A stretch of DNA of 64,000 nucleotides, taken from assembly GCA_964344235.1 (NCBI GenBank), contig CAYFMJ010000001.1, positions 348,875 to 412,874 on the forward strand, given 5' to 3'. Within the stretch, counting starts at the first letter, position 1; each line of letters begins with the position of its first letter. Source of the DNA: an uncultured Methanosarcinales archaeon (GTDB taxonomy: Archaea > Nanobdellota > Nanobdellia > Woesearchaeales > GW2011-AR9). The notes beneath the pieces are model-generated. The model ran no database searches. It saw nothing but the letters and a program-made list of their open reading frames with translations, and was not told the DNA's origin. The translations under genes were made by a program, and so were the position numbers. Of the stretch, positions 4,731-55,731 are shown piece by piece.

Positions 4731-6005
4731 TTACCATTTTATTTTTCTGTTCCGGGAGAATTCTACAAGAGAGAGAAGAAAGATGCTGCCTTTTAAGAGA
4801 TAGTAAAATGCAAAGTAGGGGATAAGGGGAAGCCATCCAAACCGCATCATTCTTTCGTTTGCATTCTTATGGGCGCGGTAGAAAAAATAAAACCCAATGA
4901 CAAAGAGGAAGATAACGATAAAGAATGGTTTGAAATCAGTGAGGAGGAGTTCTAAAGGAGTGATTGTAGTATCGAGCGTTTGAATATACGGTGAGAGGTT
5001 GAATCGGACGATACTTAAATTTTTGAGGCCGTCTAAAGCAGGAAGGGCCAGGAAATATACTGCTGCTAAAAGTCCAGTGAGAGCAAGAATATACCCCGCA
5101 GTATTCTTGATCAATTGGATTAAACCAAAGTCGCCATATTTCTTGTTAGCGATCATTCTTCTATATTGATGTAAGCAGATCATGCCACCTAGATACCAGC
5201 GTCGTCGTTGTGAGTAGAATGGTTTGATCTTGTGTGGTGCTGTAGTGTACACGTAACCGTCGAAGCATTGTTTGATTTGGTAGTTGTGTTCCTGCACACG
5301 GTACGCAATTTCTTGATCTTCAGTGATGTTTTGTGGATCGAAACCACCGAGTTTTTTGATAATGGACGTTCTGTATAATGAAAAAGGCCCAGGAGCCACG
5401 TATAGTGAGTCTAAATGACTTGCTAGCCGTGCGATGAAAATGATGATAAGATATTCTAGCCATTGAACACGTTGGAGGATGTTTTTTGGGTTATCAACTT
5501 TCATTGCTGGGGTGATGATGGCAAGATTAGGGTTGTTTTCTTTCTCATACAGTGCCAGCATTTTACGGAGCGTAGAAGGTTCAACGAATGAATCAGCGTC
5601 GAGGCATGCAAAATATTCTCCCCGAGAGACTTTAAGCGCTTTGTTCATTGATGCTCCTTTTCCCATATTGGCGTGGGAGATAAGTCGGAAGTGTGGTTTA
5701 TTATGAATGAATGCTGTGACAACTTCTTTTGTTTGATCGGTTGATCCATCGTTAATGACAATCACGTCGAGTTTCTCTTTTGGATAGTCAATGTTGTTGA
5801 TTGATTGTAATGTTTTGAGAATTGTTTTTTCTTCATTTAATGCTGGGACAATAATAGAAACGATTGGAGTTTGTGAGAGTATGGTCGTTGATTGCTCCTG
5901 TTTAAATTCAGTTCGTTTATCAATGTATACTAACAGGAAAAATACAGAGAAATATAATGATAAAACGTATGCTACCCACAAAATAACGTTAATGATAATT
6001 CCCAC
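4731..6005 (-). CDS. Processive GT2 glycosyltransferase (PgaC/cellulose synthase-like)
   Basis: IVPALNEE, NDGSTD, LDADS, TED and QRRRW motifs; flanking TM helices. Confidence 0.85.
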   Translation of the reverse strand: MGIIINVILWVAYVLSLYFSVFFLLVYIDKRTEFKQEQSTTILSQTPIVSIIVPALNEEKTILKTLQSINNIDYPKEKLDVIVINDGSTDQTKEVVTAFIHNKPHFRLISHANMGKGASMNKALKVSRGEYFACLDADSFVEPSTLRKMLALYEKENNPNLAIITPAMKVDNPKNILQRVQWLEYLIIIFIARLASHLDSLYVAPGPFSLYRTSIIKKLGGFDPQNITEDQEIAYRVQEHNYQIKQCFDGYVYTTAPHKIKPFYSQRRRWYLGGMICLHQYRRMIANKKYGDFGLIQLIKNTAGYILALTGLLAAVYFLALPALDGLKNLSIVRFNLSPYIQTLDTTITPLELLLTDFKPFFIVIFLFVIGFYFFYRAHKNANERMMRFGWLPLIPYFAFYYLLKGSIFLLSLVEFSRNRKIKW

Positions 6006-7368: not shown

Positions 7369-8840
7369 TTTGCAGTCTCTAAGCCACATGTTGTGCGGTA
7401 TATTTTTGTCTGGTTACTGTATACTTGCTGGAAGCACTCTTCTGTTAGGAATGTAAAAGTTTCGTGCCCCGTTTTTTGTTGTGCGTGTGGTGTGAACACA
7501 AGATATTGGGAGCTGTATTCTTGTAGAACACCAATGGCACGTGTTTGTAACGAACTTCCAAAGACAGCATTCACGTCGATGAAGCGCTTCTCTACATCCT
7601 TAATAAGCCTGAATTGGTCATCAATAATGTTTTGTCTGTTGCTGTAATAGGTAATCAAGTGGCCTTCTTTAGTGAGAGCTAAGATACCAGTGTTTTTGGG
7701 AGCATGCTCGTTGAGCCATTGGAATGCTGCTATCTCTTCATCCTGTGGCGTTTCCTGTTGTAATGATGCCAAGATAGCTGGTGCGATTGTTGTTATGAGA
7801 AGAACGAAAATTACCAGTGCTGGGATATATTTTTTGAATGTATAAATTTTTGTTTGTTCAATGTATGCGATAATGTCATCGTAAAATGATGCGAAAAATG
7901 CAGCGAGAATTATACCGAAGAAGCTGAGGGAAAGTGTAAACTCGATAAGTCGGAACCATGTGAGTATTGTTGTTGAGATAGCGAAACTCAAGAGCAGGAA
8001 TAGTTTTTTGTTTCGTGTGAAAAATAATGACCTATAGGCTACAACAACTCCTGCAAGAAATGGAATAGCACTAATGAGGATAAGAGTTTCTGCAATCGTT
8101 GCTTGTGGGAAATATTGTTGAACGATTTGAGAAGGGATGTTTTGCCAAATAAATGAAATCCCCTGTTCTATGAAGACGTTTTTGAAGAAAAGGAATTGTG
8201 CCCAGATGAAGAAGAATACTGAGAAGAGAATCAGCTCAACTTCTGCTTTACTGACACGCTTTCGTTCAATAGCTGCTAAGATAAGGTAGATGCCAAAACC
8301 CATGATGAGGAGAAATGTAGCGGAAGAGGTGAGTGAGAGAGCAAGGAATGCTATAACATACGAAAAGAGCGCTTTTTCTTTTGTCAGGTTGAGGAAAAGG
8401 TAGATTGTGTAGAAGACTAGTGGTAGGAATAACGTTTGAGGTGTAAAGGAGTTGGTGTTGTACAGAATGGGGAGGAAGCCGGCGATCGATGCTGAGAAGA
8501 GAGGACCATGCTTTTTAGTACTAATTTGGGCACTAAGGTAATAGATGATAATTGTGAGTGAGGCTATGAAAATATTTGGCAGGATTTTGGCGACTAATGC
8601 TAATGGTAGGAATAAATCGAAGAATGCTGCGACGTAATGGAATAGTGGAAGGAAGAACAGTTCTCTCCCTCCGTAGGAGAGTGAGTCTTGGTATAAAGGT
8701 AAGCCATGTTCGGTGATATGTTCCACCTGCCGCATGTGATAATATGAGTCGTAGGTTAGATTTGGAACGGAGAACGCGAGGATAAGTCTTGCAGTTAATG
8801 TTACTAGAAAAATAATAATTAACCAGTGTTTGCTTTTCAT
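7365..8840 (-). CDS. Multi-pass membrane protein, probable GT-C/STT3-like glycosyltransferase
   Basis: YDSYYHMR after TM1, C-terminal FQWLNEHAPKNTGIL...GHLITY; probable paralog of the downstream gene. Confidence 0.6.
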   Translation of the reverse strand: MKSKHWLIIIFLVTLTARLILAFSVPNLTYDSYYHMRQVEHITEHGLPLYQDSLSYGGRELFFLPLFHYVAAFFDLFLPLALVAKILPNIFIASLTIIIYYLSAQISTKKHGPLFSASIAGFLPILYNTNSFTPQTLFLPLVFYTIYLFLNLTKEKALFSYVIAFLALSLTSSATFLLIMGFGIYLILAAIERKRVSKAEVELILFSVFFFIWAQFLFFKNVFIEQGISFIWQNIPSQIVQQYFPQATIAETLILISAIPFLAGVVVAYRSLFFTRNKKLFLLLSFAISTTILTWFRLIEFTLSLSFFGIILAAFFASFYDDIIAYIEQTKIYTFKKYIPALVIFVLLITTIAPAILASLQQETPQDEEIAAFQWLNEHAPKNTGILALTKEGHLITYYSNRQNIIDDQFRLIKDVEKRFIDVNAVFGSSLQTRAIGVLQEYSSQYLVFTPHAQQKTGHETFTFLTEECFQQVYSNQTKIYRTTCGLETAK

Positions 8841-26301: not shown

Positions 26302-28428
26302 ATGGCTGATTTTGGTGATGGATATTATATGCCGATGGACCGTGGACATGCACATGATCATGGACATCATGGTTTTCCAGGGGTTTCAGGGAAAGCAACA
26401 AGTGATGTAGGGATTTCTATCGGTGATTTAGGAACAAGTATGGGTTTAGGTCCGGTGCCGAATGTGCAAACTGTTAAATCGCGTCTTCATCCCGGAGCGA
26501 AGAAGTTAGAGTTCGTATTTTTTGGTCGAGGAAAAGGTTCTGCTCAGGGACATACGCCAGGACAGTATGGGTTTAAGCAACGACAAGCATTAGTAGAGAT
26601 TGGAAGATCAAATAAAGTTGATTTTACAACGCACTCTGCTGTTGGCATTATGGGTTTAGCAGGGATGGATCAGCAAGGGAATTTCTCAAAAGCAAGTAAG
26701 CAGGATTCTCTATTGGAGTTAAAGCGAGCAGTTGAATTCGCTGCAGATGTGGGACAGGGAGGGCCCGTTGTTGTTCATACTGGGGAGTTTGACAGGCCAA
26801 TTGTTGACGCTGAGTGGAACCAACAGGAAGGCGATCCGTACAAAGGGAAGTTTACTCGGTATGCTGATGAGGAAGGAAGAACGGAGTATAGGGTTGTTGA
26901 TAGAAGAACTGGAAGACTGGTACAGTCAGCTCAGAAGAATAGAAAAGTTTCCCGGCCAGTATGGAATGTTGCTACAGAGGGAGAAGAGTATGTCGACTTT
27001 GATGGGGTGACAAAAAAGGGTGAGAAAGGAAAAAAAGTGTATTTAGATTATGAGGGAAACCGCGTACAGCCAGAGTTACGAGTTCCGAAGTTTAACAAAG
27101 ATGATCAAAAATTCGAAGTGGTGCAGCTAGGGTGGGAAGATCTTGTTGAGGAAGCAAAAGAAATGACTACCCGTGCTAAAGAGGTGTGGAAAGATTGGAA
27201 AGCTGGTAGAATTAGTAATAAAGAGTTTGAAAAATCGTATTGGGCTCGATTTAGGGATGCGAAGAGTGTTAAAGATGTTAACGTCCGGGCTGAGGAAGCG
27301 TATATTATCTCAACATTAGAAACCAATGCTGCTAGGGACAGGGGTTGGGCGTTGTATTATGGGGGGAATTTTGATGATTATATCAAAAAAATGAAGAAGT
27401 TTAAGAAAGCGCTGGCGTTTTATGAGCAATTGGAAGAAGCAACTGATGAAGAAGAGAAGTGGCAATTGAAGCGCGAAATTGGCGAGTTGCGTTTACCGAG
27501 TGGGTTGGTGCCGCCTGATTCTAAATTTCCCTCTGAAATTTTGAGAGAGCAGATTAAAGAAGTTGATCGGCAAATGAAATATTCGCGTGAATCTTCAGCA
27601 GCACAATGGGCGCAATCAGAAGAAGCGGTGGAACAGATCAGGAATATTGAGAGTGCGGAGACGTATGCAATTAAAGAAGCGTATGATGCGTATGCACAAT
27701 CAGCAATTAGTGCAATGAGACAGAGTGATGCGTTAGAGAAGAAAGGTAAGTTGAAGAAGCCGATTGCAGTTGCTCTTGAAAATTTATTCCCAGAAGCATA
27801 TGGTTCACACCCTGATGAGTTAAAAAGTTTAGTGCTTGGGAGTCGGGAGAGGATGGTTGAGTTGCTGAAACAGCAAGGAATGGCTGAAGAAGCGGCTAAG
27901 AAGAAAGCCACAGCGCACATTACTGCAACATTTGATACCGGGCATCTTAACATGTGGCGGAAGTATTGGCGAGGGGATCCAAATAAAAGTATCAAAGAAA
28001 ATGATAAAGCATTTGATAAATGGATGTTAGATAAAGTTGGAGAGCTAGCAAAGGATAAGATTATTGGCCACGTACATATTGATGATAATTATGGGTATCA
28101 TGATGATCATCTCGCTCCGGGTGAAGGGAATACGCCGATTAAAGAGATGGTGAAAGTGTTAAAAAAGAACGGGTACAAAGGAGAATTAATTGTGGAGCCC
28201 GGTGCAGATTATTATACAGATACGGGAAATGGCTTTGCGTCACTTGCGAAGACATGGAAACATTTTGATCTACCAGTCTATGGACGAGGAGGGTTGTCTG
28301 GACAAGGAGCAACGTGGGGGAATGTGCAGTATGGTTTCTTTGGACATAATCAACCTGCATATTTCGTGTTTGGAGCATATAGCCCGTCGGAAGAATGGAC
28401 GTTGTGGTCAGGAGTGCCGTTGGAGTAA
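26302..28428 (+). CDS. Xylose-isomerase-like/AP endonuclease 2 TIM-barrel metalloenzyme with large insertion
   Basis: VVHTGE, ALENL, TFDTGH, HVHIDD...HL, IVE metal motifs. Confidence 0.75.
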   Translation: MADFGDGYYMPMDRGHAHDHGHHGFPGVSGKATSDVGISIGDLGTSMGLGPVPNVQTVKSRLHPGAKKLEFVFFGRGKGSAQGHTPGQYGFKQRQALVEIGRSNKVDFTTHSAVGIMGLAGMDQQGNFSKASKQDSLLELKRAVEFAADVGQGGPVVVHTGEFDRPIVDAEWNQQEGDPYKGKFTRYADEEGRTEYRVVDRRTGRLVQSAQKNRKVSRPVWNVATEGEEYVDFDGVTKKGEKGKKVYLDYEGNRVQPELRVPKFNKDDQKFEVVQLGWEDLVEEAKEMTTRAKEVWKDWKAGRISNKEFEKSYWARFRDAKSVKDVNVRAEEAYIISTLETNAARDRGWALYYGGNFDDYIKKMKKFKKALAFYEQLEEATDEEEKWQLKREIGELRLPSGLVPPDSKFPSEILREQIKEVDRQMKYSRESSAAQWAQSEEAVEQIRNIESAETYAIKEAYDAYAQSAISAMRQSDALEKKGKLKKPIAVALENLFPEAYGSHPDELKSLVLGSRERMVELLKQQGMAEEAAKKKATAHITATFDTGHLNMWRKYWRGDPNKSIKENDKAFDKWMLDKVGELAKDKIIGHVHIDDNYGYHDDHLAPGEGNTPIKEMVKVLKKNGYKGELIVEPGADYYTDTGNGFASLAKTWKHFDLPVYGRGGLSGQGATWGNVQYGFFGHNQPAYFVFGAYSPSEEWTLWSGVPLE

Positions 28429-28469
28429 TTGTTGCTGTATTTTTTCGACGACAAAATTGAGCGGAAGGT

Positions 28470-28638
28470 GTTATGCCCTGGGGACTTTACGTCCCCACGA
28501 GGAGCGTAGCGACGAAGAGTTTTTGAACTACCGTGCATTGACACTGGCGCCGATTAACACTTACAGTTTTTAGTTTTAGTATTTCAAAGAAGGGGGAGTT
28601 CCGTTAGTTTTAGTTACACATTAAAGGGGGGACAATTT
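28470..28638. repeat. Cassette 1 left arm
   Basis: GTTATGCCC, hairpin TGGGGAC-TTTAC-GTCCCCA, GGAGC-GTA-GCGAC, then blocks TTTTTGAACTACC, ACTGGCGCC, GATTAACACT, GGGGGAGTTCC, AGGGGGGACAATTT. Confidence 0.9.
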
Positions 28639-28640
28639 AG

Positions 28641-29402
28641 TTACTTGAAAGGTTTACTTTGTTTCCAGAACCATTCAAAATAATTTCTAAAAGAATCAGC
28701 AACTTGTTGACTTGTTATTTCAAAGGCAAAGGGCATTTCACCCTGAGGGATTGCAATGAGAACCACATCTTTGTAGATCATTACCCAAGAGGGAGATTCA
28801 ATATTGAGGGGCATTCTTCTGGCTTCGCAATATTTGTAACTATTTCTGTTCTTTAAGTTTTCATTAGTTACATCAGGATGATAAAGCATTCTGCATTTGA
28901 TTTTTTCTTTTGCCAAAATCTGATGGTGCTTTTTCCAATACGCATGATGAAAGCCCGGTTGTTGCGGAGGCAACCCGTACAAAACAACCTCATCTCCCTG
29001 TTTCAATTTTTGATAGCGGTTTTCGTAAGCAGTCATTAATCCTCTAAATCCCTCATACATATTAGCCTCACTTTTTTTGGCTAACTTTTGTTTAAGGATT
29101 AACTGGGGAATCATCTCTTGGATTTTCGCTTTATTTTGTTGAATCTCTTTTTCTCTAGTTTCAACATAATCCAAGAGTGTATTTGGCGGTGCTGCTTGGT
29201 AATACTTAGTTTTTTCTTTGGTCACATAGGAAACAAGCCCTTTCTTGATTAGTTTTTCAAGAATCCTATAGATGATTGATCTATTTACTCCAGATTTTTC
29301 AAGAATAGGGCCGATTGTTGACGAACCAAGCTCTAGCAAAGCCAAGTAAGTTCTTGTTTCACCATCAGTTAATCCTGCTTCTTGAAGGGCTGAAATGTCC
29401 AT
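28641..29402 (-). CDS. TrmB-family transcriptional regulator
   Basis: GLTDGETRTYLALL...SIIYRILEKLIKKGLV wHTH plus C-terminal effector domain. Confidence 0.85.
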   Translation of the reverse strand: MDISALQEAGLTDGETRTYLALLELGSSTIGPILEKSGVNRSIIYRILEKLIKKGLVSYVTKEKTKYYQAAPPNTLLDYVETREKEIQQNKAKIQEMIPQLILKQKLAKKSEANMYEGFRGLMTAYENRYQKLKQGDEVVLYGLPPQQPGFHHAYWKKHHQILAKEKIKCRMLYHPDVTNENLKNRNSYKYCEARRMPLNIESPSWVMIYKDVVLIAIPQGEMPFAFEITSQQVADSFRNYFEWFWKQSKPFK

Positions 29403-29521
29403 GCTTTGTTTATGATTGGTTGTTTTATTTAAATCTTTCTAATTAGCATACTAGTGGTGGTATGATAAAATTATTAAAGAAAGTAGTTGCTACTGTTAAA
29501 TAAATAACTTAGGAATTAAAA

Positions 29522-29971
29522 ATGACAGAAGAAAATAATGGGCTTGACGAGAGATTACTAACACAAGTACAGGCAATTAGCAGATTAGTAATTCCAGGTG
29601 TACAAACTGAATTTTGCAGGGGGGTTCCAAAGGAAGGCAGTACTAATGAATTTAGTCCAAGCACTAACATTCTTATTGAAAACTGTCTGGGTAGAACTGT
29701 TTTTGCATCATATATCCACACTCCGTATGGTAAGAATCAATTTAGGATGTGGTTAGACAATCGTCCAAAAATGTTGGTACCCGCTAGAGATCATTACGAT
29801 CGTGGAGGCAGTTCAAGAGAAGGCAGCCACTGGTTTTTTGAAGCTACTGGACTAACCGAACCAGTACAATCAATAAGAGATCTGTTGACGGATGGTTGGG
29901 AGAAAAAAGATGAATACAGCCATAGGGCAACTGCTATTCTTTACGCAAAAGGCGGGTTTTCGGATGAATAA
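29522..29971 (+). CDS. Hypothetical protein (cassette 1 cargo)
   Basis: 149-aa ORF with AGGA SD. Confidence 0.6.
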   Translation: MTEENNGLDERLLTQVQAISRLVIPGVQTEFCRGVPKEGSTNEFSPSTNILIENCLGRTVFASYIHTPYGKNQFRMWLDNRPKMLVPARDHYDRGGSSREGSHWFFEATGLTEPVQSIRDLLTDGWEKKDEYSHRATAILYAKGGFSDE

Positions 29972-29998
29972 TCAAGATGAAACTAGGAGCTAAATAAA

Positions 29999-30541
29999 AT
30001 GGCAAAAATTGAAAGCATTGAAAGAATACTTGTTGTTGAGGATACTGAACAACATATTCAGGCAGCTAGAGAACAACTTGGTGAGTATGAACTTACAATG
30101 GTGGGAGATTTCGAAAGATTCCTCGACGCAGTGAAAGGTACTTGTTTTGACGCGCCGAATAATAGAATGAAGCGTAATTATAACTTTCCTGAAGATCCAA
30201 AATTTGATGCTGTACTTAGCGATATGAATTTTCCTATGAATGTAAAAGACTTGTACAGTGGTTACAATTCCCCTGGTGTTTTAGGATATGCAGTAGGGAT
30301 GATCTGTTCACAAGCATCAATTCCATTAGTAGGAATTGTGTCTGCAACAAACCACCATGAAGGATCTGTTGCAGGAAGTCTAATGTACTTGAAAGCAACA
30401 AGACACGCTGATAGAATTTTTCAAGTAGGAGATACACGAATAATGTATTTTGATGATGACTCTTTTGGCACAAGGGATCAACCTAAGAGATGGGATAAAG
30501 CATTAGAATGTTTAAATGCAGGAACCAGAAATATTGATTAG
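29999..30541 (+). CDS. Receiver (REC)-like hypothetical protein (cassette 1 cargo)
   Basis: RILVVED and DAVLSDMNFP resemble receiver motifs. Confidence 0.55.
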   Translation: MAKIESIERILVVEDTEQHIQAAREQLGEYELTMVGDFERFLDAVKGTCFDAPNNRMKRNYNFPEDPKFDAVLSDMNFPMNVKDLYSGYNSPGVLGYAVGMICSQASIPLVGIVSATNHHEGSVAGSLMYLKATRHADRIFQVGDTRIMYFDDDSFGTRDQPKRWDKALECLNAGTRNID

Positions 30542-30697
30542 AAATTGTCCCCCCTCTTTTTTTTGTTTTTAGGAACTCCCCCGTTAAAGTTTTAGTGTTA
30601 ATCATAGTTTTAGTTCTTAGAAAGGCGCCAGTTAAGATTGTTTAATTTAGCGTTAGCGTAGTATCCAAAATAGGTAGTTCAAAAATTGGGCATATAC
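30542..30697. repeat. Cassette 1 right arm
   Basis: AAATTGTCCCCCCT, GGAACTCCCCC, AGTGTTAATC, GGCGCCAGT, GGTAGTTCAAAAA are exact reverse complements of the left-arm blocks, in mirrored order; then TT-GGGCATATAC. Confidence 0.9.
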
Positions 30698-30700
30698 GAT

Positions 30701-30819
30701 GTTATGTGCCCCCGACTTCACGTCGGGGTGCGTAACGACCGAAGGGAGTGGAGCAAGTATTTGAGTTGCGTCATAGAAAGGGGCTTGGCATAGTTTTGGT
30801 TTTTAGAGGGGCTTAAGTT
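30701..30819. repeat. Cassette 2 left arm
   Basis: GTTATGTGC, hairpin CCCCGAC-TTCAC-GTCGGGG, ACGACC-GAA-GGGAGT, blocks TATTTGAGTTGC, GGGGCTTGGC, AGAGGGGCTTAAGTT. Confidence 0.9.
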
Positions 30820-31155
30820 TTACTTTTTGAAAATGTTTACTAAAGAATCCTGAATCTCTTTGATTTTGTTTTCTTTCAAAGTGCCAATTTTTGAAGAAAT
30901 GATTGAAACATCGGCAGTGAAAAGCTTGTTTGGTCTTACAAGACTTGATACTGTCAATTTTCCAGTTTGAAAATTTTCTGTTTCAAGAGGAACTGCATAT
31001 TCATCGCTACGAGCAGAAGCAGTTGTTATCTGTGCAAGAATTAAATCGTCACCTGTGAGATTTGCCACCACTACTGCTGGTCGTTTCCGTGATGAACTTA
31101 GATCAGAGAAAGGAAAAAGAAGAACAACGACATCTCCTCTTACAAGTGTTTCCAT
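30820..31155 (-). CDS. mazF: PemK/MazF-family toxin
   Basis: RGDVVVLLFPFSDLSSSRKRPAVVV, LAQIT, RPNKLFT. Confidence 0.9.
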   Translation of the reverse strand: METLVRGDVVVLLFPFSDLSSSRKRPAVVVANLTGDDLILAQITTASARSDEYAVPLETENFQTGKLTVSSLVRPNKLFTADVSIISSKIGTLKENKIKEIQDSLVNIFKK

Positions 31156-31388
31156 GCTTCATCCTCCTCTTTAGTAAGCCAATCTTTTGCTAAAGATTTT
31201 TCACTGGCTAAAGCTGGAAACATTTTTTCATTGAATTGTTTTAACGGTCGTAGTTCTACTTTATTATCAAAGGCTAAAATTGCTACTTTTGTTCCCTCTT
31301 TGAATCCCTCAAGTTTTCTAATGTTTTTTGGGATAGCAATTTGACCTTTCTCTGTTACAGTTGCAGTTCTCATTTCGATTAATGGCAT
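31140..31388 (-). CDS. mazE: AbrB/MazE-family antitoxin
   Basis: TVTEKGQIAIPKNIR...EGTKV AbrB fold; overlaps toxin start; AGGTGA SD. Confidence 0.85.
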   Translation of the reverse strand: MPLIEMRTATVTEKGQIAIPKNIRKLEGFKEGTKVAILAFDNKVELRPLKQFNEKMFPALASEKSLAKDWLTKEEDEAWKHL

Positions 31389-31550
31389 TTTGATCACCTA
31401 CTTAGTAATTCTTACAAGTAGGATAAGTAAGAAATATATAAATTTTTCTGTATTTATGTTGTTACTAAATGATGAATAAATCAAGGAAAGATTTATAAAT
31501 GATTAGCCGTTTCTAAGACTATAATCATTAAAATCAAGAGGTCAATAAAA

Positions 31551-31853
31551 ATGTCAGAAAATAAATTAGTATTTGCTCGTGCATATTGGATGAATAGTCC
31601 ATTTGAAGAAGGACAAGCAGGATTCTTTGTAGGAGATCCAAGTAATCCATCTAAAGGATCATATGAAGGTAACAATAATTTAAGGTTTGCTGTTGCTAAA
31701 GTTGCTGAAAGAAGTTCTGAATTATCTACAACTGTTGATACAGAATTTGAAGGTCTAGCAAGAGATGGCAAAATGACTTTATTGTTGCAACCAATTGAGC
31801 AAGATACTGCTAAATACAAAAGTGTTGATGAATTAGCACGCATGTATCTTTAA
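31551..31853 (+). CDS. Hypothetical protein (cassette 2 cargo), AT-rich
   Basis: 100-aa ORF with GAGGT SD. Confidence 0.6.
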   Translation: MSENKLVFARAYWMNSPFEEGQAGFFVGDPSNPSKGSYEGNNNLRFAVAKVAERSSELSTTVDTEFEGLARDGKMTLLLQPIEQDTAKYKSVDELARMYL

Positions 31854-31870
31854 AATTATTTTTTCTTTTT

Positions 31871-32012
31871 AACTTAAGCCCCTCTTTTTCTTTTTACATT
31901 TTAGTTTTTAACATAGAGCCAAGCCCCATCAATAATAGAATTTCTGCATTCAGTTTATAGTCAGTAAACAGAAGCAGAGTAAACATCAAGCAACTCAAAT
32001 ATTGCACATAAC
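31871..32012. repeat. Cassette 2 right arm
   Basis: AACTTAAGCCCCTCT, GCCAAGCCCC, GCAACTCAAATA are exact reverse complements of the left arm; then TT-GCACATAAC. Confidence 0.9.
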
Positions 32013-32015
32013 GAT

Positions 32016-32097
32016 GTTATGTTGTGGGAGGTTCATCCTCCCAGCCGAGCGTTAGCGAGGAAGTTTAGAAATCAGGAACAAGCTTTACCCCCGCCAT
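32016..32097. repeat. Cassette 3 left arm
   Basis: GTTATGTTG, hairpin TGGGAGG-TTCAT-CCTCCCA, CCGAGC-GTTA-GCGAGG, blocks TTTAGAAATCAGGAA, TTACCCCCGCCAT. Confidence 0.85.
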
Positions 32098-32175
32098 TGT
32101 AGAATTTCACTGCCATACTCATCTTTTACTATTTTTTAGTAATATTTTTAAAGAAAGAGGTTTCTCATACTATTT

Positions 32176-32694
32176 ATGCAACAATTACTAACATACAGAG
32201 AATTTCCATTTGATCATTCATTATTTTTGGATAAAGGTATTAATGCAGGAGATTTGCATGTTACTCTTTATGATGAAATGGGTTGTACTCAAGATGGTGA
32301 CCAAAAGTTAAGTGAAGTAAATAGAAGAGTTCATAATGCTGCTGTAAGAAGTTTAGTTGGTAAATTTGCTGGTGATTTAGGACAAAGAGTTTCTTTTGGT
32401 GTTTCTAGATTTTTAAAAAAAAGTAAACGTGCTAGTCCTGATTATTCATTAAGTGAAGTTGCAGATGTTCTTGTTGGAGCAGGAGCGTATGAATCAAGAG
32501 AAGCAGCATTAGAACATTTACCTGAATTTTTAGGAACCTCTTTAAGGACTGATGGAAAACGAAAATATGCTAACTCAATGTGGACGGGAGTACAAACTAG
32601 TTTAGATATTGAAGTAAAAGATGAGTGGCATTGGTTTGGAAGAATAGATTCTGATAGTGGTGAACAGAAGGTATATTTACATAAGCAAAAATAA
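32176..32694 (+). CDS. Hypothetical protein (cassette 3 cargo), AT-rich
   Basis: 172-aa ORF. Confidence 0.6.
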   Translation: MQQLLTYREFPFDHSLFLDKGINAGDLHVTLYDEMGCTQDGDQKLSEVNRRVHNAAVRSLVGKFAGDLGQRVSFGVSRFLKKSKRASPDYSLSEVADVLVGAGAYESREAALEHLPEFLGTSLRTDGKRKYANSMWTGVQTSLDIEVKDEWHWFGRIDSDSGEQKVYLHKQK

Positions 32695-32698
32695 TTTT

Positions 32699-32755
32699 AT
32701 GGTGGGGGTTATTCAAGTTCTACGTCCTAATTCCTGATCTCTAAATTCAACATAC
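32699..32755. repeat. Cassette 3 right arm
   Basis: ATGGTGGGGGTTA and TTCCTGATCTCTAAA are near-exact reverse complements of the left arm; then TT-CAACATAC. Confidence 0.8.
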
Positions 32756-32935
32756 GGACTACTTAAGTGCACTTTGGGCTTAAGTAGTGAAATTCTTTGA
32801 ATTCAAAGCCTCTACTCAATCCCATAACGCAAAAAACTGTTACTACTTTGCATGGAAATGTCTCACTACCCACTCGACAACCACGGGTAGAGTATATAAA
32901 CGAGTTTCTTCACTAAGAATGTCGAGGTGATAGAA

Positions 32936-33061
32936 ATGAAAATGAAATTATTTCGGCGCGGTAAGTTGGTTGGTTTAGTGACTCCTAGTTTTTATATGGG
33001 GGAAGTGGAAAAAGAACGATTGATTTGGGATGATATTGATTTACCGTATCTTGAGGCGTGA
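32936..33061 (+). CDS. Small protein, 41 aa (MKMKLFRRGKLVGLVTPSFYMGEVEKERLIWDDIDLPYLEA)
   Basis: GAGGTGA SD and TATATAAA box upstream; below ORF-track size cutoff. Confidence 0.45.
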   Translation: MKMKLFRRGKLVGLVTPSFYMGEVEKERLIWDDIDLPYLEA

Positions 33062-33098
33062 GTAAGATTTATAACCTCTTATTCTTTTCTTTTTATTG

Positions 33099-33662
33099 AT
33101 GAAAAAGAAGGTGACGAAGAGAACAGTTCGTAGGAAAGTTGTGAAGCGTAAGCCTGCTGCAAAAAGAGCTACGAGAAGAAAGAAAGTTGTTAGGAAACCG
33201 GTTCGGAAAAAGACAGTGAAGCGATCTGTTAAAAGAAAGCCCGTAAAGAAGAGAGCTGTGAAACGAAAAGTTCTTCACAAAAAACCGCCACAGAAAAGAC
33301 GTGCGAGAGGATATATTCCGTTCGATGTTCTTGTCGATAAATTACAGCATTCTAAGAAGAAACAGAGTGTGCTTGATGTGACTGATTATTCTAAAGCCGT
33401 GAAGACTGTAAAGATGAAAGAATCGAAGGATTACATCCCAGTTTCACAGTTAGCAAAGCGGTTTGAGAAGAAACGAACACCAGAGTCGTATCGAAAGGAA
33501 ATTAAGAAAAAGATGCGGAAAGGTTTATTGCATCGGATTAAAGATAAAGTGAAAAGAAAGAAGCCAGTTAAACGGCGAGTTGTGAAAAAGAAGAAAACTG
33601 TTTCCAAAAGAAAATCTGTTAAGGGAAAAGTAACGAAGAAAAAACCACGTAAGAAAAGATAA
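33099..33662 (+). CDS. Lys/Arg-rich histone H1-like protein
   Basis: Repeated KKVVRK/KRKPVKK tracts at both termini around a small central domain. Confidence 0.6.
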   Translation: MKKKVTKRTVRRKVVKRKPAAKRATRRKKVVRKPVRKKTVKRSVKRKPVKKRAVKRKVLHKKPPQKRRARGYIPFDVLVDKLQHSKKKQSVLDVTDYSKAVKTVKMKESKDYIPVSQLAKRFEKKRTPESYRKEIKKKMRKGLLHRIKDKVKRKKPVKRRVVKKKKTVSKRKSVKGKVTKKKPRKKR

Positions 33663-33775
33663 TGCTCCCGCGAGGACTTTCATTCACGTTTGTGATTTTG
33701 AACCCCGGATTTCTAGGTCCGCAACCTAGCGTCCTATTTGCACTCTTTGAGAGATCCATGCTAGACGATGGGAGC
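33663..33775 (-). tRNA. tRNA-Arg(GCG) with two non-canonical introns: 19/20 (33738-33755, 18 nt) and 59/60 (33677-33696, 20 nt)
   Basis: CTAGG-TTGCGGA-CCTAG anticodon arm; D-loop BHB with GCAT/GTGC helix; T-loop relaxed BHB with TTCA/TGAA helix; splicing yields a 75-nt cloverleaf. Confidence 0.85.
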
Positions 33776-33808
33776 ACTAACGGTTCGAGAAGGAGTTATT
33801 TTAAAAAT

Positions 33809-34594
33809 TTATTGGCGCTTCGCAATATCGGCCCCACCAGCAGGTAAGAATTTAATGATATCATTTAAGTCTCCACCTTTCAATTTTGCTTTAATCTTTT
33901 TTGCTAATGCGGATTTTTTATTTCTTCCTGGAATGACAACGATGTAATTCTTTGTTTTTGTTTTAATTGCATTTAGCGGTCCTCCAATAATTTCTTCGTT
34001 TAATAGACCAATAGTGTATTGGGCTTTTGGGTGGAAGTATTGCGTTTTTCCATACACCATGAATGCGCCTTTAGGAAGATTTTCTCCGGCTTGCGCTTCT
34101 TTCGTCACCTGTTCTGGTTTTACATAGAAAACGTCCGCAGTGGTATGGCCGAGTTTCCATGCTCTTGAATATGCTGCAACAGCTTGCGCGGCTTCCTGAA
34201 TTGTTGTTTCAGTTGCTGCTTGTCCGTTTTTGATAATGAAGAAGGGGGAACCTGCCATGTCGGTGTGTAGGACTAGGTCGTCTTTCTCCATATGTTTTTT
34301 TACGATGATTTCGTTTGATGTTGCGTCTTTTCCTCCAATACAAAGAAAATCTTCAGAAGAGATAAACCAATGAAATTTTTCATACCACTCTTGTTTTCTC
34401 TGACGCTTCGCTTCCTTCTTCTCTTCCTCTTCCCAGAAAGTTGATTCTTGCTGTTTGAGAGTTTTAAGCTTATGTTGGCTGTCTCGCAGTGCTTTCTGTG
34501 CTCCTTCAAGTTTCTTTCTCGCTTTTTTTGCAAGGTTGAAGTATGTGCCAGCATTTTCATCTACTGATTTTGTGAGGTCGAATTCTATTTGCAT
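33809..34594 (-). CDS. Short NFACT-R (DUF814; RqcH/NEMF-related) protein
   Basis: SVDENAGTYF, WYEKFHWF, GGKDATSNE, HTDMAGSP, YSRAW, GAFMVYG. Confidence 0.8.
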   Translation of the reverse strand: MQIEFDLTKSVDENAGTYFNLAKKARKKLEGAQKALRDSQHKLKTLKQQESTFWEEEEKKEAKRQRKQEWYEKFHWFISSEDFLCIGGKDATSNEIIVKKHMEKDDLVLHTDMAGSPFFIIKNGQAATETTIQEAAQAVAAYSRAWKLGHTTADVFYVKPEQVTKEAQAGENLPKGAFMVYGKTQYFHPKAQYTIGLLNEEIIGGPLNAIKTKTKNYIVVIPGRNKKSALAKKIKAKLKGGDLNDIIKFLPAGGADIAKRQ

Positions 34595-36894: not shown

Positions 36895-37013
36895 AGCCCC
36901 GGGCGAGAGTTGAACTCGCGACCTCCTGATATCTTACCATGCTTGTGCTCTATTGAAAACATAGCAGATAGATGGCTACAAGTCAGGTGCTATAGCCACT
37001 AAGCCACCGGGGC
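36895..37013 (-). tRNA. tRNA-Thr(TGT) with canonical 46-nt intron at 37/38 (36931-36976)
   Basis: GCCCCGG/CCGGGGC acceptor, CCTGA-CTTGTA|A-TCAGG; BHB with CTTG/TAAG helix and CCAT/ATGG. Confidence 0.92.
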
Positions 37014-53448: not shown

Positions 53449-54195
53449 ATGGCAAATATTCGAGCAGTTAAACAGAAAGGGAGAAAACTTCCGAATGTCT
53501 TTAGTAAGAAACAATTGGTTGATCTCTTTCTTACAATCCGGGAAACAGAAATCTTTGTCGCTGCATTACTGGCGTTGTTCTGTGGTTTTCGCATTAGTGA
53601 AATATGCAAGCTAAGAAAAGATGACGTTGATTTGGATTCAGAGAGGATTAAAGTTGTACAGGGAAAGGGACATAAAGATCGCTATGTAATGGTGCCATCA
53701 AAACTGGTTCCATTTTTGAAACAATGGTTCCGCGTTCACCCAGATACTCCCTATGTCATCCCAGCACCGTACAAGGGACATTATAATGTTGGTTCGTTCC
53801 AAGCAAAATTTAGGAAATACCTTAAAGAAGCAGGTTTGTCCATGAAAGTTGGTCAGTCATCAACTGGGCTGCCTATTTATGCCTACAAATTTCATACATT
53901 ACGTCATACATATGCAACATTATTGTTAGAGAGAGGTGTTGATTTACATTATATCCAACGTGCACTCGGTCATTCTGACCTTCATACAACCCAAATTTAC
54001 GCGTATATTGGACAGAAAGATCTCCACAATAAGATTAATGCAGCGTTTGGTTCTGGACGTTCAAAACAGCGTCAAGCGCACAATACAACGGATCCAATTC
54101 AGTTGTTACAACTTAAATTAGCTGAGGGGGATATTGGCAAGAAAGAATACTTAGATAAACTGGACTTATTACAGCAAAGTTCAAGTTTGGCCTAA
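53449..54195 (+). CDS. Tyrosine recombinase, catalytic domain only, with C-terminal SHOCT-like helices
   Basis: GFRISE (R), GKGHK (K), HTLRH, LGH, TTQIY; tail DPIQLLQLKLAEGDIGKKEY. Confidence 0.9.
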   Translation: MANIRAVKQKGRKLPNVFSKKQLVDLFLTIRETEIFVAALLALFCGFRISEICKLRKDDVDLDSERIKVVQGKGHKDRYVMVPSKLVPFLKQWFRVHPDTPYVIPAPYKGHYNVGSFQAKFRKYLKEAGLSMKVGQSSTGLPIYAYKFHTLRHTYATLLLERGVDLHYIQRALGHSDLHTTQIYAYIGQKDLHNKINAAFGSGRSKQRQAHNTTDPIQLLQLKLAEGDIGKKEYLDKLDLLQQSSSLA

Positions 54196-55218: not shown

Positions 55219-55731
55219 TGTCGCCCACACTCGCTTAAAATCTTCCAGGACTCTCTGCCCTGAATAATTAAGATAAATATCTGTCGTTTGGATACTTGAA
55301 TGCCCTAAAATTCCCTGTAATGCACGGAGATTCCCTCCTCGATGTAAATACGTGACTGCGAATGTATGCCGTAGCACATGAGGCGTTACTTTCTTCCTAA
55401 TTCCTGCCCTTTCAGCAACTCGTTTCACGATTTGCTGTGCCCAACGAGATGTCATTTTTATTCTATCCCTACGGTGGAAATATGATTGAAGATACTTCCT
55501 TGCACAATTACTCATTGGGATCACGCGTCGTTTGTTTCCTTTTCCCCATGTGGTAATACAATCTCTCTGCCAACTAATTTGGTCAACAGAAAGAGTAGTT
55601 AATTCACTCACTCTCATCCCTGTTTCCAGAAGGACATTGATAACTAACTGTTCGCAAAAGGTTTTACATGCCCTTCGCAAAAGCACTATTTCATTTTCTT
55701 CCAATGGTTCTCGTTTGTATGTAAAAGCCAT
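55204..55731 (-). CDS. Minimal tyrosine recombinase (175 aa, catalytic domain only)
   Basis: TGMRVSE, GKGNK, HVLRH, LGH, TTDIY. Confidence 0.9.
   Translation of the reverse strand: MAFTYKREPLEENEIVLLRRACKTFCEQLVINVLLETGMRVSELTTLSVDQISWQRDCITTWGKGNKRRVIPMSNCARKYLQSYFHRRDRIKMTSRWAQQIVKRVAERAGIRKKVTPHVLRHTFAVTYLHRGGNLRALQGILGHSSIQTTDIYLNYSGQRVLEDFKRVWATSESV

Follow-up and report, generated by a model that had tools for sequence, protein, structure and literature searches.

Within a 64,000-nucleotide stretch of DNA from an uncultured archaeon (contig CAYFMJ010000001.1, positions 348,875 to 412,874; hereafter the window), three gene cassettes lie in tandem, and the 9-bp termini of these cassettes appear, with a probability that we put at roughly two in three, to be the half-sites of an Xer-type crossover core belonging to an integron-like cassette platform. 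An earlier note on this DNA, made from the sequence alone, had described the termini and read the cassette junctions as a tyrosine-recombinase-type, dif-like core. That reading gains weight from 75 conserved junctions in related genomes, from an exchange point that falls inside the core and from a XerA-family gene at array ends. Throughout, c1, c2 and c3 denote the window cassettes and G000 the genome that contains the window, a 1.19-Mb assembly of a DPANN-like archaeon in 37 contigs (C3, C15 and so on); other G numbers are relatives from the same family.

In general form, a cassette of the window begins with GTTATGNNN and ends with NNNCATAAC; both are exact in c2, and c1 and c3 each carry one indel. 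Read on the plus strand, c1 (28470-30697) runs from GTTATGCCC to GGGCATATAC, c2 (30701-32012) from GTTATGTGC to GCACATAAC and c3 (32016-32755) from GTTATGTTG to CAACATAC. The left terminus, or left half-site, of c1 is GTTATGCCC at 28470-28478, followed at 28479-28519 by a left-end module that consists of one hairpin, H1 (28479-28497; 7-bp stem, loop TTTAC), and then a second, H2, with tandem G-A mismatches. The left end of c2 (30701-30757) is made up of the terminus GTTATGTGC at 30701-30709, H1 at 30710-30728 and H2 at 30729-30757, and that of c3 (32016-32063) of GTTATGTTG at 32016-32024, H1 at 32025-32043 and H2 at 32044-32063. At the right ends, a TT dinucleotide precedes every terminus. In c1 (30686-30697), TT at 30686-30687 stands before GGGCATATAC (30688-30697), which has a 1-nt insertion relative to GGGCATAAC and pairs with 28470-28478 on cofolding. 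In c2 (32002-32012), TT at 32002-32003 stands before GCACATAAC (32004-32012), the perfect 9-bp complement of 30701-30709, and in c3 (32746-32755), TT at 32746-32747 stands before CAACATAC (32748-32755), which has a 1-nt deletion relative to CAACATAAC. The termini, including the perfect match of c2 and the single-nucleotide indels of c1 and c3, lie exactly where the earlier note had placed them, and the TT that it had noticed precedes the right terminus in 51 of 52 cassettes across arrays. The spacer GAT is read directly from the sequence at the c1/c2 junction (30698-30700, plus strand) and recurs at the c2/c3 junction (32013-32015, plus strand), where the probable exchange point lies at its 5' edge (TAAC^GAT). 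At the left boundary of the array, GGT occupies the position of the GAT spacer (28467-28469, plus strand), and no half-site of the right-terminus type is found upstream of 28467.

GTTATG on its own shows no excess in the window (31 occurrences against 33 expected); the junction signal resides in the composite site and not in the hexamer. For the 15-mer junction CATAACGATGTTATG, chance predicts 0.13 occurrences when up to two mismatches are allowed. Across the 1.19-Mb genome, a CATA(A)C-N-GTTATG junction occurs only at the two window junctions and at one chance match. A search across the genome for inverted termini exact over 9 bp, with a score from gapped alignment of the arms, discriminated poorly and was replaced by a covariance model of the left end (R1), built from seven copies of the spacer, left terminus and H1, of which the c2 left end is the top match (47.3 bits). 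The model matches 67 of 114 genomes of the same family in the Genome Taxonomy Database (GTDB), in clusters of up to 18. Arrays were taken from twelve further genomes and re-searched with the model, which gave 78 matches, and our array statistics cover 13 genomes. A left-end-like match at 1551 on C15 lies inside an open reading frame (ORF) and was dropped as a false positive.

The consensus of 75 distinct junctions from these genomes is A-A-T-T-N-N-R-C-W-T-A-A-C-G-A-T-G-T-T-A-W-G-Y-N-N, in which only the 11 bp TAAC-GAT-GTTA are near-invariant and the flanks vary; the GAT spacer is kept in at least 70 of the 75. The core recurs at hundreds of cassette boundaries in this family of tiny archaea, and the three outer bases of each terminus (NNN) pair within cassettes there, two points that the earlier note had proposed to check on a wider collection of junctions. 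The exact 13-mer TAACGATGTTAWG is present in five of seven sampled genomes of the family and occurs in the other 135 families of the order at about the frequency of a reversed control pattern, which argues that the junction type is family-specific. Cassettes measure 78-3827 nt, with a median of about 1 kb, and the orientation of their longest ORF is mixed (28 plus, 21 minus). In G000 itself, contig C3 holds a second, paralogous array that likewise starts with GGT-GTTATG, and small low-G+C contigs carry arrays of a variant type. The second junction type, on C17, C19, C22 and C26 (loci L013-L016; for example L015:900-1080), is laid out as ...CWTAAC, ATC, a linker hairpin of 80-150 nt, T or GAT, and GTTA. 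The ends of its linker hairpin pair with one another, as in GCGATTAAG...CTTAATCGC; the arrangement is much nearer to attC (R''-L''...L'-R') and accompanies the more divergent recombinase of C15.

NNN is perfectly complementary within the cassette in 45 of 61 neighbouring pairs and across the junction in 6 of 76, which extends to the whole set of arrays what had been noticed in the window, namely that NNN is matched inside a cassette but not over a junction. Covariation is seen at pairs 5-9 of the terminal helix (TA/AT, GC/CG, TA/CG and others) and likewise at positions 5 and 6 of the hexamer: GTTATC goes with GATAAC, GTTAAC with GTTAAC and GTTAAG with CTTAAC. The 9-bp match is the tip of a longer pairing, with cofolded arms of about 170 nt in c1, 120 nt in c2 and 80 nt in c3, and under DNA energy parameters the median pairing gain is -23 kcal/mol for cognate arms, as against -6.4 for non-cognate arms and -6.1 across the junction. 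The exceptions to the NNN rule, such as those at L048 6766 and 7942 and at L055 2059, are probably chimeric cassettes produced by homologous recombination between shared H1/H2 modules.

Only the left arm bears the two inserted hairpins H1 and H2, which turns the paired ends into a four-way junction. The 7-bp stem of H1, which closes a TTYAY loop, is paired in 100% of cases and shows compensatory changes at all seven pairs across cassettes; the hairpin H2 contains tandem G-A mismatches. Conservation of sequence is confined to the central 11 bp, and what is conserved in the outer 5 bp and in 80-170 nt of the arms is pairing only. The H2 region (30729-30745 in the window, and the left modules of relatives) often has GTAAC-GAC or GTAGC directly after H1, a sequence that resembles a buried right terminus and spacer, and DNA folding sometimes pairs the GTTA of the left terminus with it. 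A raw count of 276 G:T-type to 125 A:C-type mismatches in the arms was rejected as a sign of strand asymmetry, as the excess was gone once the count was restricted to isolated mismatches within solid helices and corrected for composition.

The arms may have a second role in transcription. T-runs come after H2 in the top strand and after the right terminus in the bottom strand, which suggests that the arms also insulate the cassette from transcription outside it. Blocks such as GGGGGACAATTT and GGGGAGTTCC, whose complements lead into T-runs, turn up repeatedly in the arms of unrelated cassettes (28590-28640 and 30545-30580 in the window; 5750-5880 and 8390-8450 on G000:C17) and may be shared terminator or protein-binding modules. 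One could go further and propose that the ends, arms and hairpins serve only to insulate, terminate or process RNA and that the junction is a processing or termination site. The T-runs, which make both cassette ends look like inward-facing terminators, the recurrence of blocks such as GGGGGACAATTT and a slight excess of G:T over A:C mismatches in the terminal helix and H1 (13 to 4) are all in keeping with this idea. We nevertheless consider it unlikely as the sole explanation: with ORFs in both orientations, no single transcript would usefully span both arms, wobble pairs are not enriched in the arms, no Rfam family matches, and duplication of whole units with exact boundaries, together with linkage to a recombinase, requires a DNA mechanism. 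A role in RNA or transcription can coexist with the recombination site as a second function of the arms.

Tyrosine recombinase genes lie 0.15-3.7 kb past the right end of the array in G000:C3, G000:C15, G109, G008, G011 and G032, on the strand that bears GTTA-H1, and are therefore transcribed away from the array; comparison of coordinates gives the same placement in G100, G022, G049, G097, G037, G014 and G018. These proteins of 271-301 amino acids have the archaeal XerA model NF040815 (recomb_XerA_Arch) as their best family, at 219.4 bits for C3, 240.3 for C15 and 236 for G109 against a cut-off of 220, and their best matches by sequence in the PDB are XerA (4a8e and 5hxy), followed by IntI4 (2a3v). 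The IntI model TIGR02249 matches them in two stretches only (positions ~5-182 and 239-306), at 194-217 bits and below its cut-off of 265, from which we conclude that the IntI-specific insertion, a domain situated around patch III, is absent. The array-linked recombinases form a clade at 46-62% identity, and a second Xer-like clade stands at 33-42%. Most genomes have such a second, more distant Xer-like gene away from the arrays, and no GAT-type junctions were found in the flanks examined of the other strong Xer-like genes of G109, G008, G111 and G045. Many array-linked genes sit 0.1-1.3 kb from a contig end, as expected if arrays break assemblies. The link to XerA that the earlier note had raised is thus seen in many genomes as physical adjacency. 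Two shorter tyrosine recombinase genes of the window itself, at 53527-54003 (plus strand; 248 aa) and 55264-55704 (minus strand; 175 aa), lie about 21 kb from the array and are unrelated to the XerA-type clade.

A XerA-family enzyme could also point to tandem accretion at the chromosomal dif site by the housekeeping XerA, with the units behaving like integrative mobile elements exploiting Xer (IMEX) and not as a dedicated cassette system. The dif site of E. coli is of the CATAA-N-TTATG type, which the core resembles; the enzyme does belong to the XerA family, and G011 shows one strong Xer-like gene only, the array-linked one. We find this quite improbable, as most genomes have the second, distant Xer-like gene away from the arrays, and G000 has two array-linked paralogues (C3 and C15), each with its own junction type. 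The cassettes have no replication or transfer genes, and cassette-specific arms are not needed by IMEX. An Xer/dif system for dimer resolution has a single site on the chromosome, in the region of the replication terminus, and the presence of many directly repeated sites in each array argues against a pure role of that kind.

Copies of the same cassette in different surroundings show where its identity ends. A 505-nt cassette occurs twice in G011, with identity that stops directly after ...CTTAAT and gives way to different neighbours. In G032, a 562-nt cassette occurs twice and identity stops directly after ...CATAAC; copy 1 is internal and followed by GGT-GTTATG, and copy 2 is followed by TCT-TTTTATGCGG, the terminal site, which a distance of about 530 nt separates from a XerA-type gene downstream. 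G074 has three copies of an empty cassette of 81 nt (L057, on G074:C11; reverse-complement coordinates 3312, 5229 and 5923, minus strand), a minimal unit with termini, H1, H2 and a 16-nt arm hairpin and without cargo, and between two of them upstream identity begins only at GAT. Finally, the start of C15 and the reverse complement of the end of C19, both in G000, share 55 nt and fork directly after CACTTAAC, one branch leading to the recombinase gene and the other to the next junction. As identity between copies of a unit has to extend on either side as far as the exchange point or beyond it, exchange would take place at TAAC^GAT, give or take one base, and the mobile unit would be GAT-GTTA...TAAC; three independent cassette families and one contig fork make this a lead and not a proof. 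Cargo also changes inside conserved ends: cassettes of C19 (4500-3125, minus strand) and C26 (3020-1475, minus strand) have unrelated cargo between arms that are both about 94% identical, so that the arms behave as a reusable shell within which cargo is exchanged.

An exchange point of this kind, at TAAC^, is also what would be expected of 'peel and paste' transposition of the IS200/IS605 type, in which a HUH (Y1) transposase would read H1, cut after TAAC and insert the unit beside a resident copy. A covarying subterminal hairpin at one end only and insertion beside a conserved tetranucleotide without duplication fit such a mechanism, and tandem stacking would follow from it. We regard it as very unlikely, since the linked gene encodes an Xer-family tyrosine recombinase and since the Y1 HUH transposase model PF01797 has no match in G000 or in five well-assembled array-bearing relatives (G109, G008, G045, G011 and G111), whereas it matched 6 of 14 control genomes. 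We give still less credence to tandem non-autonomous transposons with terminal inverted repeats, in which GAT would be a 3-bp target-site duplication or a preferred target: the inverted unit ends, exact over 9 bp in c2 and extending into long arms, and the GAT on both sides of c2 would suit it, but GAT is identical in at least 70 of 75 junctions from 13 genomes and so is no copy of a variable target, c1 is flanked by GGT and GAT and c3 by GAT and GGA, the array-linked gene is an Xer-type recombinase with no transposase linked to the arrays, the ends vary between cassettes and yet stay complementary in a way that a sequence-reading transposase would not tolerate, and single-cassette insertions at scattered sites with variable 3-bp duplications are not seen. 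The earlier note had offered target duplication as an alternative origin of GAT. This is contradicted by the constancy of GAT across genomes and by array ends whose trinucleotide is GGT at the left end but one of GGA, TCT, TCC and ACT at the right; copies of a cassette start at GAT and carry it along, and with the exchange point at TAAC^GAT this makes GAT part of the site.

The crossover-core reading gains a further element at the right end of the arrays. In at least 13 genomes, a right terminus lies 130-750 nt upstream of the array-linked gene and is followed by TCC, TCT, TCG or ACT instead of GAT-GTTA. After this trinucleotide comes an arm, YTATAWGC, which in many cases pairs with a copy some 25 nt further along to make a hairpin around the motif ATATTTTGG. 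The window has such a terminal, attI-like site at 32756-32788 (plus strand), with the 3-nt spacer GGA and a hairpin (32758-32788; -9.3 kcal/mol, z -4.3) of stem CTACTTAAG/CTTAAGTAG and a loop that contains TTTGGG. From 32785 to 32900 (plus strand), the window is homologous to the region upstream of the C3 recombinase, identical over 63 nt and then about 80% similar up to a TATA-like box. No recombinase gene follows the window terminal site; a 44-aa ORF (32927-33061) stands there instead. Because the terminal hairpin and promoter region remain without the recombinase gene, the window array is an orphan, like the clusters of attC sites lacking integron-integrases (CALINs) of integrons, and the C3 or C15 enzyme could serve it in trans. 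Right-terminus indels of the kind seen in c1 and c3 are rare in other cassettes, and the variant CATATAC at the right terminus of c1 resembles the terminal-site arm of relatives. The suggestion that these indels mark c1 and c3 as immobilised is plausible and fits both their rarity and the loss of the recombinase.

These elements can be assembled into a proposed mechanism, in our view the simplest one that accounts for all of the observations. Each 9-bp terminus would be one half of the cassette's own recombination site, and a junction would consist of a right half-site TT-NNN-C-W-TAAC, the spacer GAT and the left half-site GTTA-W-G-NNN of the next cassette, the joined halves making an Xer/dif-like core CWTAA-CGATG-TTAWG. 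The linked XerA-family recombinase would most likely act at TAAC^GAT to exchange strands. If the junctions on either side of a cassette recombined with each other, the cassette would come out as a circle, GAT-GTTA...TAAC, whose site has perfectly matched arms, and because such a circle brings the cassette's own half-sites together, NNN would match within a cassette and not across a junction. The terminal site next to the recombinase gene (TAAC, three bases, hairpin) would then receive the circle, and cassettes would stack as they do in an integron.

Several observations weigh against this reading or limit its details. First, the centre of the terminal site (TCC, TCT, GGA and so on) differs from GAT, and two-strand exchange with a homologous overlap is therefore unlikely there; classical exchange of that kind would fail. 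Second, the dyad is centred on a single base, the A of GAT, which gives the palindrome a centre of 3, 5 or 7 nt, whereas the spacer at whose borders XerA cuts is 6 nt long (PMC3646895); a 5-nt spacer, as the earlier note had drawn it, is one of several possible readings. Third, mismatch counts speak neither clearly for nor clearly against folding of a single strand: G:T mismatches outnumber A:C mismatches in the terminal helix and H1, as given above, and the restricted arm count stands at 12 to 9 (expected ratio 1.33), along with 38 transversion mismatches. Fourth, the array-type XerA clade and left-end matches co-occur imperfectly (31 of 40 versus 11 of 21), in fragmented metagenome-assembled genomes that are related to one another. 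Finally, a recombinase gene is missing from the window array, indels affect two of its three right termini, and no circular junction or empty site was observed.

The mismatch at the terminal site would be accommodated by exchange of a single strand at TAAC^ followed by replication. Integron attI x attC recombination and CTXphi integration both proceed by single strand exchange followed by replication, and the study of Val et al. 2005 reportedly sets a precedent in CTXphi for an Xer enzyme that acts on a folded single strand, the forked-hairpin attP, with exchange of one strand. As only pairing is conserved outside the 11 bp and one arm bears covarying hairpins, the archaeal site is probably recognised at least partly as structure, perhaps as a folded single strand, in analogy with the integron attC and the CTXphi attP hairpin. 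A fuller version, which we advance tentatively and hold to be possible and not probable, is that a dedicated XerA paralogue recognises a folded strand made up of the 9-bp helix, the four-way junction, the two hairpins and the long arms, exchanges one strand at TAAC^GAT and leaves the product to be resolved by replication. According to a review, stem-loop sites of unrelated att sequences are likewise bound by the XerA of Pyrococcus, but less tightly (PMC8371274).

Placed beside known systems, the arrays have much in common with integrons. They are one-directional arrays of small accessory-gene cassettes, toxin-antitoxin pairs among them; in relatives and on C3 and C15, one array end has the recombinase gene, which follows a dedicated terminal site and is transcribed away from the array; sites are conserved more as structure than as sequence; and orphan arrays exist. 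The core, in consensus GTTA-W-G-Y / R-C-W-TAAC, partly resembles GTTRRRY/RYYYAAC: the form GTTAAGY fits GTTRRRY, and the window form GTTATGY has T for R. The earlier note's comparison with integrons accordingly stands for a cassette start that is complementary to the core at its own far end and fails for a canonical integron, as the array-linked recombinase has no IntI-specific insertion and scores as XerA, and there is no contiguous attC, window junctions being R''-GAT-R' with nothing between. An attC is an unbroken imperfect hairpin, R''-L''...L'-R', of about 55-140 nt that closes the 3' end of each cassette, with crossover at G^TT of R'. The hairpin here is instead split between the cassette ends with its centre, as opposed to its edge, as the exchange point, one arm has two extra hairpins, and ORF orientation is mixed. 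The archaeal integrons of Ghaly et al. 2022 have an IntI with its extra domain and canonical attC sites (PMC9668308).

With Xer/dif systems and IMEX, the arrays share an Xer-family enzyme, a CATAA-spacer-TTATG core and tandem accretion beside one site. They differ in an odd centre of 3-7 nt and conserved arms of only 6 bp, as opposed to 11-bp arms and a 6-bp spacer, in outer arm positions that are free but paired, and in the apparent use of a dedicated XerA paralogue; compared with IMEX, the units are bare gene cassettes and not phages or plasmids. Archaeal Xer/dif systems have single dif sites with 11-bp arms and a 6-bp spacer, which in Thermococcales do not adjoin xerA (PMC2958812). The pdif modules of Acinetobacter plasmids, which carry resistance or toxin-antitoxin genes, are similar in being small, in often having toxin-antitoxin pairs as cargo and in being bounded by Xer-type sites with arms that face each other across the module. 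Neighbouring sites of pdif modules, which are XerC/XerD sites, alternate in orientation, whereas here GAT is on the same strand at every junction; the host is an archaeon, and there are long private arms and hairpins. Subterminal hairpins, insertion at a fixed tetranucleotide and the lack of target duplication recall IS200/IS605 elements and their palindrome-associated derivatives; the two cassette ends, by contrast, pair with one another, a tyrosine recombinase is linked to them, and Y1 was not found in six genomes.

The cargo of the window array, which at 35.8% G+C is poorer than the window as a whole (39.6%), is mixed. In c1 (28641-30541) a TrmB-family regulator is encoded on the minus strand at 28641-29402, and ORFs without a family lie on the plus strand at 29522-29971 and 29999-30541. 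In c2 (30820-31853), a MazF/PemK toxin (30820-31155) and a MazE antitoxin (31140-31397) are encoded on the minus strand, and an ORF without a family (31551-31853) on the plus strand; c3 carries one 172-aa ORF without a family (32176-32694, plus strand). The longest inverted repeat within 28000-34000 joins 28433-28466 to 33316-33349 (34 nt, 79% complementary); one of its arms lies just left of the array, and the other lies inside a very lysine/arginine-rich ORF of 188 aa just downstream of the array (33096-33662, plus strand), which has internal repeats and no Pfam family. The left flank of the array resembles a box near the promoter of the C15 recombinase. A search of the window at Rfam gathering thresholds returned one tRNA only, and the junction matches no known RNA family; the tRNA, at 36895-37013 on the minus strand, spans 119 nt (56.6 bits) and probably contains an intron, and ARAGORN, which found no tRNA in the window, missed it. 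Elsewhere in G000, the whole of the 5.5-kb contig C23 (19-5475) is flanked by inverted ends that start with GTTAATGTA and share extended arm similarity (score 27), and it may be another bounded element.

The system looks like an undescribed archaeal counterpart of the bacterial integron. Full-text literature searches, in which most subscription journals were not included, turned up no account of archaeal cassette arrays linked to Xer; the present analysis contributes the grammar of the site, the exchange point, the consensus of the terminal site and the orphan status of the window array. The textbook means by which bacteria gather and rearrange accessory genes is the integron; where integrons came from, and why most archaea have none, are standing questions. 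For a widespread archaeal cassette platform with an Xer-type enzyme there is now a precise grammar, comprising an 11-bp centre, covarying outer positions, exchange at TAAC^GAT and a terminal hairpin. This grammar makes the strand used, the cut made and the acting Xer paralogue directly testable, and permits automatic annotation of arrays across DPANN genomes; in these genomes the arrays break assemblies, and their cargo includes regulators, toxin-antitoxin pairs and many genes without a family. If the site is indeed read as a folded strand, the platform would represent a way of solving the integron problem that is either independent or ancestral and has a chromosome-dimer resolvase as its basis, and would show a route from an Xer enzyme to a cassette integrase.

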